DNA from: Escherichia coli
GTDB taxonomy: Bacteria; Pseudomonadota; Gammaproteobacteria; Enterobacterales; Enterobacteriaceae
Length of the DNA: 57,948 nt
Direction: 5' to 3' (one strand)
NCBI RefSeq assembly: GCF_003334315.1
Contig: NZ_QOWR01000026.1
Positions 27,922 to 35,943 of the stretch are shown here, piece after piece. Both the position numbers and the translations under genes were made by a program. The notes beneath the pieces are model-generated. The model was not told where the DNA came from. It saw only the letters and a list, made by a program, of their open reading frames with translations, and made no database searches. Numbering within the stretch: the first letter of the stretch is position 1; each line of letters opens with the position of its first letter.

Positions 27922-29430
<1,509 letters not shown>

Positions 29431-29524
29431 GGGACTTAGCCTGCGGCGGTTTTGTTTGGCTTCAGCAGCGGGTTGCGCTCCCTTAATGTGCCTCGCCATA
29501 TAAATTGAATGGTGCAGGGAGCGC

Positions 29525-29556
29525 GCAGGGGGCGGCCAATCGCCGCCGCCCCCTGC
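29525..29556. other. GC-rich perfect 12-bp hairpin downstream of putP
   Basis: GCAGGGGGCGGC-N8-GCCGCCCCCTGC; a second 8-bp inverted repeat GCGCTCCC/GGGAGCGC lies just upstream at 29475-29524. Confidence 0.5.
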
Positions 29557-29730
29557 TGTCCCGGCCTTCGGGGAACGCTTCAGCGATTTTGACGCCACCA
29601 ACACCCGAGCTGTTATTATGTTCCGGGCAAAAAGTTAGATTTGATAATCGCGGATGGACGAAATTGCTTGATACACCCGCTTATCAGTTTTACATGGAAG
29701 CTCTGATGCATTGAGTCTGGACAGTTTTGT

Positions 29731-29764
29731 CGGCTGGATACGGCGTTTACGCGGCATCCGGCAA
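29731..29764. repeat. REP element
   Basis: GCTGGATACGGCGTTTACGCGGCATCCGGC palindromic unit. Confidence 0.6.
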
Positions 29765-29894
29765 GAACACATGGCTCGTTGTAAACAATCCCATCTTTGT
29801 ACCTGGAATAATCGTTTATATCCCCTGGCATTACCTCTCTTTGTTTACATTTCAACATCATTTTATAAACATTCCGCTTGTATTTTTCTTTACC

Positions 29895-29913
29895 GTAATG
29901 ATAATCGCTATCA
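29895..29913. promoter_or_regulatory. Candidate Fur box upstream of efeU
   Basis: GTAATGATAATCGCTATCA, about 15/17 core match to GATAATGATAATCATTATC, ending 59 bp upstream of the efeU ATG. Confidence 0.65.
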
Positions 29914-29971
29914 CTGCGATTTACTTTTCTTTGCATAGATTGACTCAGAAAAACGTTTAAGGGTGGGTGGC

Positions 29972-30802
29972 ATGTTTGTTCCGTTTCTCATTATGTTGCG
30001 CGAAGGACTTGAAGCCGCGCTGATTGTCAGTTTGATTGCCAGCTATCTTAAGCGTACCCAGCGAGGCCGATGGATTGGTGTGATGTGGATTGGCGTGTTG
30101 CTTGCCGCTGCGTTGTGCCTGGGCTTGGGTATCTTCATTAACGAAACCACCGGCGAATTTCCGCAAAAAGAACAGGAACTGTTTGAAGGTATCGTGGCGG
30201 TGATCGCCGTGGTGATCCTTACCTGGATGGTTTTCTGGATGCGCAAAGTGTCGCGCAACGTCAAAGTGCAACTGGAACAGGCAGTCGATAGCGCATTGCA
30301 GCGTGGAAATCATCATGGCTGGGCGCTGGTGATGATGGTCTTTTTTGCCGTTGCAAGGGAAGGGCTGGAGTCGGTCTTTTTCCTGCTGGCGGCATTTCAA
30401 CAAGATGTCGGGATCTGGCCGCCGCTGGGTGCAATGCTCGGTCTTGCTACTGCCGTGGTGCTAGGCTTCCTGCTCTACTGGGGCGGTATTCGCCTCAATC
30501 TTGGTGCATTTTTTAAATGGACCAGCCTGTTTATTCTCTTCGTCGCCGCAGGGCTGGCAGCTGGTGCCATTCGCGCATTTCATGAAGCCGGATTGTGGAA
30601 CCACTTTCAGGAAATCGCCTTCGATATGAGTGCGGTGCTCTCAACTCACTCGCTGTTTGGCACGCTGATGGAAGGGATTTTTGGCTATCAGGAAGCGCCG
30701 AGCGTCAGCGAAGTCGCCGTCTGGTTTATTTATCTCATCCCGGCGCTGGTGGCATTTGCTCTGCCACCACGCGCAGGGGCGACAGCGTCTCGCTCCGCGT
30801 AA
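29972..30802 (+). CDS. efeU: EfeU ferrous iron permease (FTR1 family), intact
   Basis: Uninterrupted 276-aa ORF MFVPFLIMLREGLEAALIVSLIASYLKRT... with two REGLE motifs; in-frame GTG at 29963 is an alternative start. Confidence 0.9.
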   Translation: MFVPFLIMLREGLEAALIVSLIASYLKRTQRGRWIGVMWIGVLLAAALCLGLGIFINETTGEFPQKEQELFEGIVAVIAVVILTWMVFWMRKVSRNVKVQLEQAVDSALQRGNHHGWALVMMVFFAVAREGLESVFFLLAAFQQDVGIWPPLGAMLGLATAVVLGFLLYWGGIRLNLGAFFKWTSLFILFVAAGLAAGAIRAFHEAGLWNHFQEIAFDMSAVLSTHSLFGTLMEGIFGYQEAPSVSEVAVWFIYLIPALVAFALPPRAGATASRSA

Positions 30803-30859
30803 CAAATACGACGCAAACTCTTGCTTAGTTACAACATACTTTAAAGGGATAGTCTCGTC

Positions 30860-31987
30860 ATGACCATTAACTTCCGCCGTAACGCATTGCAGTTGAGCGT
30901 GGCTGCGCTGTTTTCTTCTGCTTTTATGGCTAACGCCGCTGATGTGCCGCAGGTCAAAGTGACCGTGACGGATAAGCAGTGCGAACCGATGACCATTACG
31001 GTTAACGCCGGGAAAACACAGTTCATTATTCAGAACCACAGCCAGAAGGCGCTGGAGTGGGAGATCCTCAAAGGCGTGATGGTGGTGGAAGAGCGGGAAA
31101 ATATCGCCCCTGGCTTTAGCCAGAAAATGACGGCGAATTTACAGCCTGGCGAATACGATATGACCTGCGGTCTGCTGACTAACCCGAAAGGGAAGTTGAT
31201 CGTCAAAGGTGAGGCAACGGCGGATGCGGCGCAAAGTGATGCGCTGTTAAGTCTTGGTGGTGCAATTACTGCATATAAAGCGTATGTCATGGCGGAAACC
31301 ACGCAGCTGGTGACCGACACCAAAGCCTTTACCGACGCGATTAAAGCAGGCGATATCGAAAAAGCGAAAGCACTGTATGCACCGACGCGCCAGCACTATG
31401 AGCGTATTGAACCGATTGCTGAACTGTTCTCCGATCTGGATGGCAGCATTGACGCCCGTGAAGATGATTACGAGCAAAAAGCCGCCGACCCAAAATTCAC
31501 TGGTTTCCACCGTCTGGAAAAAGCATTGTTTGGCGACAACACCACCAAAGGAATGGATAAGTATGCCGACCAGCTTTATATCGATGTGGTCGATTTGCAA
31601 AAACGCATCAGTGAACTGGCTTTCCCACCTTCAAAAGTGGTCGGCGGCGCAGCCGGACTGATTGAGGAAGTGGCAGCCAGCAAAATCAGCGGTGAAGAAG
31701 ATCGCTACAGCCACACCGATCTGTGGGATTTCCAGGCTAACGTTGAAGGCTCGCAGAAAATTGTCGATCTGCTGCGTCCACAACTGCAAAAAGCCAACCC
31801 GGAACTGTTGGCAAAAGTCGATGCCAACTTTAAAAAGGTCGATACCATTCTGGCGAAATACCGTACTAAAGACGGTTTTGAAACCTACGACAAATTGACC
31901 GATGCCGACCGGAATGCACTGAAAGGACCGATTACTGCGCTGGCGGAAGATCTGGCGCAACTTCGCGGTGTGCTGGGACTGGATTAA
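30860..31987 (+). CDS. efeO: EfeO periplasmic iron-uptake component
   Basis: 375-aa ORF with signal peptide, downstream of efeU. Confidence 0.95.
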
Positions 31988-31992
31988 GCGTT

Positions 31993-33264
31993 ATGCAGTA
32001 TAAAGATGAAAACGGCGTGAATGAACCGTCACGCCGACGTTTACTGAAAGGGATTGGTGCACTGGCGCTGGCGGGAAGTTGTCCGGTCGCTCATGCACAA
32101 AAAACGCAAAGTGCGCCGGGTACGCTTTCACCGGATGCACGCAATGAGAAACAGCCGTTTTATGGTGAGCATCAGGCAGGGATCCTGACGCCACAACAGG
32201 CCGCAATGATGCTGGTGGCGTTTGATGTGCTTGCCAGCGATAAAGCCGATCTTGAGCGGTTGTTTCGCTTGTTGACTCAGCGTTTTGCTTTTCTGACTCA
32301 GGGCGGAGCAGCACCAGAAACGCCAAATCCGCGCCTGCCACCACTCGATTCCGGCATTCTTGGCGGCTACATTGCGCCCGATAATCTCACCATCACGTTA
32401 TCGGTGGGTCACTCATTGTTTGATGAGCGCGTTGGCCTTGCGCCACAGATGCCAAAAAAGCTGCAGAAGATGACGCGTTTCCCCAACGACTCGCTGGATG
32501 CGGCGTTATGTCATGGTGATGTGTTGCTACAGATTTGCGCCAACACCCAGGACACGGTGATCCATGCGCTGCGCGATATCATCAAACACACGCCGGATTT
32601 GCTCAGTGTGCGCTGGAAGCGGGAAGGGTTTATTTCCGATCACGCGGCGCGTAGTAAAGGCAAAGAGACGCCGATTAATTTGCTGGGTTTCAAAGACGGC
32701 ACTGCCAATCCCGATAGCCAGAATGATAAGTTGATGCAAAAAGTGGTGTGGGTAACGGCAGATCAGCAGGAGCCTGCGTGGACAATCGGTGGCAGCTATC
32801 AGGCAGTACGCTTGATTCAGTTTCGAGTGGAATTTTGGGACAGAACGCCGCTGAAAGAACAGCAGACGATTTTTGGCCGTGATAAGCAAACCGGTGCGCC
32901 GCTGGGAATGCAGCATGAGCATGATGTGCCTGATTACGCCAGCGACCCGGAAGGGAAGGTGATCGCGCTGGACAGCCATATCCGGCTGGCGAATCCCCGC
33001 ACGGCGGAGAGTGAGTCCAGCCTGATGCTGCGTCGCGGCTACAGTTATTCGTTGGGGGTCACCAACTCCGGACAACTGGATATGGGGTTGCTGTTTGTCT
33101 GCTACCAGCACGATCTGGAAAAAGGCTTCCTGACAGTACAAAAAAGGCTCAATGGCGAAGCGCTGGAGGAATACGTTAAACCTATCGGCGGCGGTTATTT
33201 TTTTGCGCTGCCGGGGGTGAAGGACGCGAACGATTATTTCGGAAGCGCGTTATTGCGGGTTTAA
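31993..33264 (+). CDS. efeB: EfeB Dyp-type peroxidase (Tat-exported)
   Basis: 423-aa ORF with twin-arginine motif ([16 protein letters not shown]). Confidence 0.95.
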
Positions 33265-33272
33265 TGTTTTTA

Positions 33273-33395
33273 GGCGGATAAGGCATTTGTGCGCAGATGC
33301 CTGATGCGACGCTTGCGCGTCTTATCATGCCTACAATCAGTGCGGGTTTGGTAGGCTGGATAAGGCGTTCACGCCGCATCCGGCGATCGTGCACT
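33273..33395. repeat. REP/BIME cluster
   Basis: At least three REP-like palindromic units between efeB and phoH. Confidence 0.7.
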
Positions 33396-33441
33396 GATGC
33401 CTGATGCAAATCCTGCTGAAAGCACACAGCTTTTTTCATCA

Positions 33442-33460
33442 CTGTCATCACTCTGTCATC
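33442..33460 (+). promoter_or_regulatory. Pho box (PhoB-binding site) upstream of phoH
   Basis: CTGTCATCACTCTGTCATC: two direct CTGTCAT repeats spaced 11 bp, about 150 bp upstream of the phoH ATG. Confidence 0.75.
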
Positions 33461-33608
33461 TTTCCAGTAGAAACTAATGTCACTGAAATGGTGTTTTATA
33501 GTTAAATATAAGTAAATATATTGTTGCAATAAATGCGAGATCTGTTGTACTTATTAAGTAGCAGCGGAAGTTCCCGGCAGTGATAGTCAGTCACTATGGA
33601 GATCGCGG

Positions 33609-34673
33609 ATGGTAACGTCCTGTACTGGACATGTTTTAGATAATCAACGCGCCACCACTCGCGGAGTTTTCTCCTCCGGTAGTCATCTCGTCACTTTGCA
33701 TTTTCAACCTCATCCTTTCTTTTCATGTGTTACCGACGCCGTAAACGGTGCGCGTAGCCGTTTTTCGGCATTTTATCCAAAAGCAAACTATGGCTTACAA
33801 GGAAGCCAACCCTCTGATGTTCGTGCGCATAATCGCGCTGCCAACGGCGCGTGTGATGAATACAAACAACTCAAGGTGCTCTCCATGGGAAGACAAAAAG
33901 CAGTGATCAAAGCTCGTCGCGAGGCAAAACGTGTGCTGAGACGGGATTCGCGCAGCCATAAGCAGCGTGAAGAAGAATCGGTCACCTCGCTTGTGCAGAT
34001 GAGCGGCGTAGAAGCCATTGGTATGGCCCGCGACAGTCGCGATACCTCGCCCATCCTCGCGCGAAATGAAGCGCAATTGCACTATCTGAAGGCTATTGAG
34101 AGTAAGCAGCTGATATTCGCTACGGGCGAAGCCGGGTGCGGAAAAACCTGGATCAGCGCAGCAAAAGCGGCAGAGGCCCTGATACATAAGGATGTCGACA
34201 GGATTATCGTCACCCGTCCAGTTCTGCAAGCCGATGAAGATCTTGGCTTCTTACCTGGAGATATCGCAGAAAAGTTTGCTCCCTATTTTCGCCCGGTCTA
34301 CGACGTGCTGGTCCGGCGCTTAGGGGCTTCCTTTATGCAGTACTGCCTGCGACCGGAAATAGGGAAGGTGGAAATCGCGCCGTTCGCCTATATGCGTGGA
34401 CGTACCTTTGAAAATGCAGTCGTCATTCTTGACGAGGCGCAGAATGTGACTGCCGCGCAAATGAAAATGTTTTTAACCCGCCTCGGGGAGAACGTGACGG
34501 TTATCGTCAACGGTGATATCACACAATGCGATTTACCTCGCGGTGTGCGCTCCGGATTAAGTGACGCGCTGGAACGTTTCGAAGAAGATGAAATGGTCGG
34601 GATCATCCGATTCGGTAAAGAGGATTGCGTACGTTCGGCACTTTGCCAACGTACGCTGCATGCCTACAGTTAA
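33609..34673 (+). CDS. phoH: PhoH ATPase (phosphate-starvation inducible)
   Basis: 354-aa ORF with Walker A motif GEAGCGKT. Confidence 0.9.
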   Translation: MVTSCTGHVLDNQRATTRGVFSSGSHLVTLHFQPHPFFSCVTDAVNGARSRFSAFYPKANYGLQGSQPSDVRAHNRAANGACDEYKQLKVLSMGRQKAVIKARREAKRVLRRDSRSHKQREEESVTSLVQMSGVEAIGMARDSRDTSPILARNEAQLHYLKAIESKQLIFATGEAGCGKTWISAAKAAEALIHKDVDRIIVTRPVLQADEDLGFLPGDIAEKFAPYFRPVYDVLVRRLGASFMQYCLRPEIGKVEIAPFAYMRGRTFENAVVILDEAQNVTAAQMKMFLTRLGENVTVIVNGDITQCDLPRGVRSGLSDALERFEEDEMVGIIRFGKEDCVRSALCQRTLHAYS

Positions 34674-34690: not shown

Positions 34691-34720
34691 AGCCCGGGCG
34701 AACCGGGCTTTGTTTTATTT
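34691..34720 (+). terminator. Rho-independent terminator of phoH
   Basis: AGCCCGG-GCGAA-CCGGGCT hairpin followed by TTGTTTTATTT. Confidence 0.75.
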
Positions 34721-35256
34721 CAACAGATTTTCACTTCAGGTTAGCGTTCAGGGGGGCGACTTTGAGCGTGTTGATAAGCTGAACTGGAGTCTGGTTTAGA
34801 TACTCTTACCAGGCATTTTTCGTCATAGCATCAGACCAGTGTAATACTGCCAGCGCGGAGAGTTTTTCTTCCAAAAGCCAAAAAAATGAGCATCTGCCTA
34901 TCTTTTTTCGGCCATTCAACCTGTACAGGAGATCTGGTGCCAATTTTGCTTATGAGGTTTAATCAACAATGGGCCATAATTTGCCTGACTGATTAACACT
35001 GAATATATTCCTCTGATTTATTCTTTAGGGATAATATTATAAATGTAAGGTTAATCTTAATTAATTCTTTTGGCTAATATTGTGTGTTGTTATTTTTTTT
35101 GTGGAAGGCAAGCTGCAATGGCAAAATAGGGATGGTTGTAATAATCAAAACATGATACTAACTATATATTGATCGTTGCATTGTTGGCATGTAACACGCT
35201 TCAGCGAGTAACATTGGTAATGAAATATAATCAACATGGATAGGTGAAAATTAATT

Positions 35257-35943
35257 ATGAGCTTTATGGCTTTTGTAACTTGTTTGACAATTGCATTTAT
35301 CGCCGGTTTTGCTGTTGCCAGAAAATTGACACTCCGAAAAGTTGCCTCATCGGTAATCATCGCTAAATCGCAACCAGTCCCTTCATCTGCAACTTCCCCT
35401 GCCGCTAAGGCGTCGACAAGGAGCTATATACCGCAGAAAACCTATCGTGACTCTCGTTGGCAAGAGCGAGATGAGTTATTTCAGGGAATGGTTGCCGAAG
35501 GTATTTTATTGGAAAGAAAAGAGTGGTTAATCACGCGTTGTGAAAAAATGTATTTCGATAATCTGGAAAAATGGTTTGGACACTATTGTCATATCCATTG
35601 CCAGGTCTCTCTGGGGCGCTTGATCAACTTTCCAGAACAACCTGAGTTTAGCGAAGAAGAAAGAAAGCGTTTCTTTGCAATTTATAATGGCATGGCAATG
35701 GATTATGTTCTGGTTTCAAAGAAGAACAATAAAATAGTCTGTGTTATTGAGCTGGATGACCCGAGTCATGAAAGGGCGGATCGCATTATTCGTGACCGTT
35801 GGTTGGATACGATTATGACTCTTGCACGGGTGCCTTTTGTACGAGCTTCTGTCACTAAATTGGAGGAAATCCCTCCGGTCTGGGAGACTCGTGACAAAAT
35901 TCGCCCATTAGTCGCGGCGACAAAGAGTGAACCGTTGCATTAA
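35257..35943 (+). CDS. Hypothetical membrane-anchored protein, possibly with a restriction-endonuclease-like (DUF2726/NERD-like) C-terminal domain
   Basis: 228-aa ORF preceded by TATAAT at 35226-35231 and AGGTGA Shine-Dalgarno; N-terminal hydrophobic helix FMAFVTCLTIAFIAGFAVA; C-terminal segment VCVIELDDPSHERADRIIRDRWLDTIMTLARVPFVRAS; domain assignment from memory only. Confidence 0.6.
   Translation: MSFMAFVTCLTIAFIAGFAVARKLTLRKVASSVIIAKSQPVPSSATSPAAKASTRSYIPQKTYRDSRWQERDELFQGMVAEGILLERKEWLITRCEKMYFDNLEKWFGHYCHIHCQVSLGRLINFPEQPEFSEEERKRFFAIYNGMAMDYVLVSKKNNKIVCVIELDDPSHERADRIIRDRWLDTIMTLARVPFVRASVTKLEEIPPVWETRDKIRPLVAATKSEPLH

Follow-up and report, generated by a model that had tools for sequence, protein, structure and literature searches.

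The stretch of Escherichia coli DNA analysed here, 57,948 nt long and referred to below as the window, carries efeU on the plus strand at positions 29972-30802. Both the ORF list and the raw sequence give one open frame of 831 nt, running from ATG to TAA and encoding 276 residues; the frame has no internal stop or frameshift and is thus the intact, continuous ORF that an earlier note had described from the letters alone. The ORF list, NCBIfam models, alignment to K-12 and motif content all identify the product as an Ftr1-family inner-membrane iron permease. EfeU scored 331.2 bits against the NCBIfam equivalog NF041756 (cut-off 255, residues 5-262) and 351.7 bits against TIGR00145, the EfeU/Ftr1 model (cut-off 303.8, residues 1-273). 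EfeU/Ftr1 proteins have seven transmembrane segments, with REXXE motifs in TM1 and TM4. In the window protein the motif occurs twice as REGLE, at residues 10-14 and 129-133, and both copies had been noticed before. A crude Kyte-Doolittle scan (19-residue window, threshold 1.6) returned six clear hydrophobic segments, at residues 1-24, 32-60, 68-94, 146-173, 177-204 and 242-266; the region around the second REGLE, approximately residues 117-142, stayed under the threshold owing to its charged residues. A PDB sequence search with EfeU gave no match. An in-frame GTG at 29963 offers an alternative start that would add three codons (279 aa), and the RefSeq annotation of identical DNA places the start at the ATG, not at the GTG. 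The purine-rich stretch AAGGGTGGG (29959-29967, plus strand), read from the sequence 5-13 nt before this ATG, resembles a Shine-Dalgarno element. Open frames in other registers or on the minus strand within efeU, such as 29957-30403 (minus strand, 148 aa), were rejected as spurious, having no support of their own and lying inside a strong family match.

The two further genes that the earlier note had placed downstream are indeed there and complete. efeO (30860-31987, plus strand, 375 aa) encodes a periplasmic cupredoxin/M75-type iron-binding component, and efeB (31993-33264, plus strand, 423 aa) a Tat-exported DyP-type haem peroxidase/deferrochelatase, each assigned from NCBIfam models, motifs and PDB matches. 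Both proteins are full-length equivalog matches far above the cut-offs: EfeO exceeded those of two NCBIfam models with 771.5 and 479.3 bits, and EfeB matched the TIGR01412 'tat_substr_1' equivalog with 615.6 bits. EfeO aligned to the solved structure of E. coli EfeO (PDB 7wgu) with E = 1.7e-228, and the EfeB matches in the PDB were 2y4f, 2y4d and 3o72, all E. coli YcdB/EfeB. In EfeO, the signal peptide contains an RR motif, and the protein retains Cys41, Cys103 and an HxxE motif (HRLE at residue 217). EfeB has a twin-arginine RRRLL at residue 14, the GXXDG motif as GFKDG at residue 232, and the residues D235, H329 and R347, which we take, following the assignments in EfeB structure papers, to be the distal Asp and Arg and the proximal His. 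The three intact genes share one orientation, with gaps of 57 nt (efeU-efeO) and 5 nt (efeO-efeB), and putP and phoH flank the operon, as they do in K-12. Where complete genomes carry identical DNA, RefSeq labels efeU, efeO and efeB at matching coordinates. A scan of 29400-33700 found no convincing plus-strand terminator after efeB, and Rfam models matched no RNA family over the putP-efeU intergenic region and the operon.

Upstream of efeU, a Fur-box-like site had also been proposed, and it is the strongest such site in the window. Both strands of the whole 57.9-kb sequence were scanned with the 19-nt Fur consensus GATAATGATAATCATTATC, and the top match on either strand was CGTAATGATAATCGCTATC at 29894-29912 (plus strand), which agrees with the consensus at 15/19 positions (14/19 on the other strand) and lies 60 nt before the efeU ATG. 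Fur binding and iron-dependent repression of efeUOB were reportedly described by Cao et al. in 2007. The 78-nt stretch before the ATG (about 29895-29971), with the Fur box, is invariant in the window, K-12, O157:H7 and strain TUM12357, and the sequence farther upstream is variable among the compared strains. A GATAAT hexamer at 29900-29905 overlaps the Fur-box-like site and could be a -10 element, though as a candidate only. A simple sigma-70 consensus scan of 29400-33700 returned no promoter at threshold upstream of efeU, its sole match in that range being 33495-33522, upstream of phoH; we therefore infer the position of the efeU promoter and assign no transcription start. Between the Fur box region and the efeU ribosome-binding site, the minus strand holds a CpxR-box-like cluster at 29879-29944, made of four overlapping GTAAA-N5-GTAAA matches with 1-2 mismatches each, phased at about 10 nt. 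CpxR-like matches number 72 across the window against roughly 50 expected, so that single matches are near chance and the predicted cluster is suggestive through its clustering alone. It fits the negative CpxR control of efeU reported in PMC9600279.

Comparison with K-12 bears out the statement in the earlier note that efeU is frameshifted and cryptic in that strain, where MG1655 efeU is the annotated pseudogene b4490 of 830 nt. A global pairwise alignment of the two genes revealed one difference in 831 nt, an extra G in the window, and all 830 bases of b4490 are found unchanged in the window gene. The extra base belongs to a GG dinucleotide at 30076-30077 (plus strand), at codons 35/36 (Ile-Gly), where K-12 has a single G. 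The K-12 product accordingly reads RGRWI followed by V and a stop: the frame is shifted after Ile35, a stop falls at codon 37, and the remainder of the gene continues in the +2 frame. Judged from this alignment, the cryptic efeU of K-12 is a deletion of one G on the same haplotype as the window allele. The statement that the strain is not K-12-like at this locus therefore holds for that single base and fails for its surroundings, since the rest of 29893-31551 is identical to K-12. Across this 1.66-kb interval, which covers all of efeU and 60% of efeO, there are zero SNPs and the indel is the sole difference. The flanks of the operon are 1-3% divergent (putA, putP and much of the left 30 kb); putA and putP, immediately upstream, show 20-34 SNPs per kb, and 29775-29892 has 9 SNPs plus one indel. 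Such mosaic identity, 1.66 kb without SNPs beside divergent flanks, looks like the product of recombination tracts. Directly beyond the identical interval, a patch of efeO at 31552-31581 has 6 SNPs in 30 nt, altering residues 234, 237 and 241; these are the three EfeO differences from K-12 (Q234K, E237D and T241I, K-12 residue first), and EfeB differs from its K-12 counterpart at two residues.

An efeU that is otherwise base-for-base that of K-12 raises the alternative that the additional G reflects an error of sequencing or assembly and that the strain truly carries the K-12 frameshift, the more so as the window resembles a draft contig with IS1 at both ends. We consider this extremely improbable. 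The GG dinucleotide is not an error-prone homopolymer, and the 25 kb around the locus match several complete genomes at a displayed identity of 100.0%; in these genomes, HS30-1 among them, the identical 3.6-kb operon is annotated with an intact 831-nt efeU. The flanks 1-3% off K-12 and the absence of the pga locus likewise show that the strain is not K-12. The narrower proposal that the window is simply K-12 DNA with a sequencing error was rejected because the flanks diverge, pga is missing and nearly identical complete genomes exist.

Several other features of the window were recorded in the course of these comparisons. Copies of the same IS1 terminus in inverted orientation, 98.5% identical to K-12 IS1D, occupy both ends (1-206 and 57745-57948), which gives the window the look of a draft contig breaking in copies of IS1. 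At the left end the element joins cspG internally and truncates its 5' part (window position ~204 corresponds to K-12 1051586, within cspG at 1051461-1051673), and at the right end it is situated between yceJ and yceO. Neither insertion is present in ET245, the closest complete genome, whose cspG is intact. At 34717-35951, the 11.4-kb K-12 block pgaDCBA-dgcT-IS3D-ymdE-ycdU (K-12 1086100-1097481) is absent, so the strain should be without the PGA biofilm polysaccharide locus. The 1.2 kb found there instead contains a 228-aa ORF (35257-35943), which the HS30-1 annotation gives as a DUF2726 domain protein and which is adjoined by tRNA-Ser serX (Rfam tRNA match at 36038-36122, minus strand). yccE, 418 aa in K-12, is split at 12653-13908 into ORFs of 302 and 116 aa by a 1-base deletion relative to K-12 at ~13534 (K-12 1064918) and is probably a pseudogene here. 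Above the Rfam gathering scores, all on the minus strand, were the antisense RNA Ysr251 over the 3' end of phoH (34475-34668, 190 bits), the sRNA ES056 (41722-41813), naRNA4 (CssrE; 11027-11105) and two copies of ES036 (CssrF; 16991-17033 and 51908-51950); the naRNA4 and ES036 families are REP-like repeat-derived RNAs.

The prediction of a functional EfeUOB system is well grounded on the identity of the window permease to that of O157:H7. EfeU of O157:H7 PV15-279 is 100% identical at the amino acid level, with five synonymous nucleotide differences, and the same RefSeq protein, WP_000497942.1, is the EfeU of both PV15-279 and HS30-1; across the operon the DNA of HS30-1 is 100% identical to the window, with efeU annotated as intact at 831 nt. 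The O157:H7 operon has the same gene order and spacing, and its 78 nt before the efeU ATG, Fur box included, are identical. EfeO differs at two residues (K234Q and I241T, window residue first) and EfeB at five, with catalytic D235, H329 and R347, the GXXDG motif and the Tat motif all kept. PV15-279 carries, between its putP and efeU, an additional hypothetical gene of 1.3 kb (minus strand, 1412-2755 of the compared locus sequence), which the window and K-12 lack, and similarity is accordingly lost upstream of about -140 from the efeU ATG. The O157:H7 EfeUOB was reported to be functional by Cao et al. 2007 (Mol Microbiol 65:857), according to PMC7549933 and PMC9600279, and the same work on EfeUOB (YcdNOB) is also cited in PMC4746246 and PMC2808357. 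PMC7549933 and PMC2808357 further state that the K-12 frameshift inactivates EfeUOB, that growth under iron restriction is restored by the in-frame operon, which is credited with Fe2+ uptake, and that EfeU (YcdN) of E. coli Nissle 1917 takes up ferrous iron (Grosse et al. 2006, Mol Microbiol 62:120). By description, the Nissle 1917 protein is an intact Ftr1-type permease of the same species and locus as the one in the window. From the 100% EfeU identity to O157:H7 together with this literature, we infer that the system in the window would be active in transport.

Intact frames might nevertheless belong to an inactive or silent system, through the EfeB substitution F147V, the EfeO substitutions Q234K/E237D/T241I or the upstream SNPs. 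Val147 of EfeB (codon at window position 32431) is Phe in K-12, O157:H7 and TUM12357; in EfeO, Lys234 and Ile241 are Gln and Thr in all three, and Asp237 is shared with O157:H7 and is Glu in K-12 and TUM12357. To these differences are added the 9 SNPs and one indel at 29775-29892 relative to K-12 and the lack of a consensus promoter upstream of efeU. Against such silencing, the EfeB and EfeO substitutions are conservative, the catalytic and motif residues are all kept, and the 78 nt before the efeU ATG are invariant. The Val147 allele of EfeB is moreover common to the many complete genomes whose operon matches the window at 100% identity, and the recurrence of the unchanged 3.6-kb sequence in over 20 independent complete genomes points to an allele that circulates and is maintained. 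A silent operon is accordingly very unlikely in our judgement. We favour, with a probability of about 0.93, the reading that the efeUOB operon in the window is the ordinary wild-type one of the species, for which Fur/CpxR control and low-pH iron uptake are to be expected.

How the window allele stands in the species was assessed in complete E. coli genomes, 5,417 of 5,426 of which contain the 3.6-kb operon at a coverage of at least 80%. Over 20 complete genomes, from human, poultry, pig, dog and frog sources, carry the identical 3.6-kb sequence, annotated as intact efeUOB. An 81-nt probe centred on the indel was searched in 5,418 complete genomes: the window allele was matched exactly in about 3,588 and the K-12 deletion allele in about 368. 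With the K-12-allele probe, each sampled match below 100% identity that spanned the indel site covered 82 nt in the record, so these genomes carry the extra base. Intact efeU is the species norm in E. coli and K-12 represents an unusual state; the frameshift is a minority state, found mostly in K-12 laboratory derivatives but not exclusive to them. In the pig isolate F2_81 (NZ_CP043542.1), the 81-nt probe aligned over its first 42-49 nt only, which suggests a different efeU disruption, by insertion or deletion, at or near the same place.

TUM12357 (NZ_CP134370.1), an isolate from imported chicken meat with a 5.03-Mb genome, has the same single-G deletion in efeU, annotated as 'frameshifted' at 3937-4766 of the compared locus sequence, and differs from K-12 at one position in the 7.5 kb around efeU. 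Laboratory derivatives of K-12 are therefore not the only carriers of the frameshift allele. We give even odds to the further idea that the window represents the exact progenitor haplotype of the K-12 pseudogene and that, taken with TUM12357, the frameshift had a natural origin and is still in circulation among wild E. coli, rather than stemming from laboratory domestication.

A working model for the operon in the window draws on the literature and general knowledge for its transport activity, its oxidase-permease mechanism and its Fur/CpxR control. Yeast Ftr1p/Fet3p and Bacillus subtilis EfeUOB (YwbLMN) each combine an Ftr1-family permease that has two REXXE motifs with an extracytoplasmic oxidising partner. 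By analogy with these systems, EfeO (cupredoxin/M75) and EfeB (Tat-exported haem DyP peroxidase) would form a periplasmic pair that probably oxidises Fe2+ and passes Fe3+ to EfeU; the window operon thus pairs a DyP haem peroxidase with a cupredoxin/M75 protein, whereas the partner in yeast is the multicopper oxidase Fet3p. EfeU would act as an Ftr1-type inner-membrane permease in which the REXXE glutamates in TM1 and TM4 relay iron across the membrane. Fe2+-Fur would repress transcription through the box, which overlaps the likely -10 region, and phosphorylated CpxR would do so at neutral or alkaline pH. Under such dual repression, the system would be expected to work at low pH and low iron, and efeUOB is accordingly envisaged as active under iron limitation, low pH and aerobic conditions.

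The operon might instead serve mainly to extract iron from haem through the deferrochelatase activity of EfeB, and not to import ferrous iron through EfeU. Létoffé et al. reportedly found such activity in 2009 in K-12, which has no EfeU. In RefSeq and the PDB, EfeB is called 'deferrochelatase/peroxidase', and efeO and efeB stay intact in both K-12 and TUM12357 despite the efeU frameshift. A haem-directed role is compatible with transport and does not exclude it; meanwhile the permease, intact and with both REXXE motifs, is conserved in the great majority of E. coli genomes, and PMC7549933 and PMC2808357 credit the in-frame operon with Fe2+ uptake. Haem iron extraction as the main role is therefore improbable, if somewhat less so than a silent allele, and all three alternatives weighed here, namely silencing, sequencing error and a haem-directed role, are unlikely or non-exclusive with respect to an ordinary, working efeUOB operon.

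Intact efeUOB in E. coli is already known and has been characterised since 2006-2007. As the intact operon is also the majority state in the species, its presence in the window brings little surprise and opens no new question. The strain should possess an acid-induced, Fur-controlled EfeUOB route for ferrous iron, which K-12 is without. The relevance of the finding lies in the use of K-12 as a physiological model for the iron metabolism of this strain, and otherwise mainly in correct annotation.
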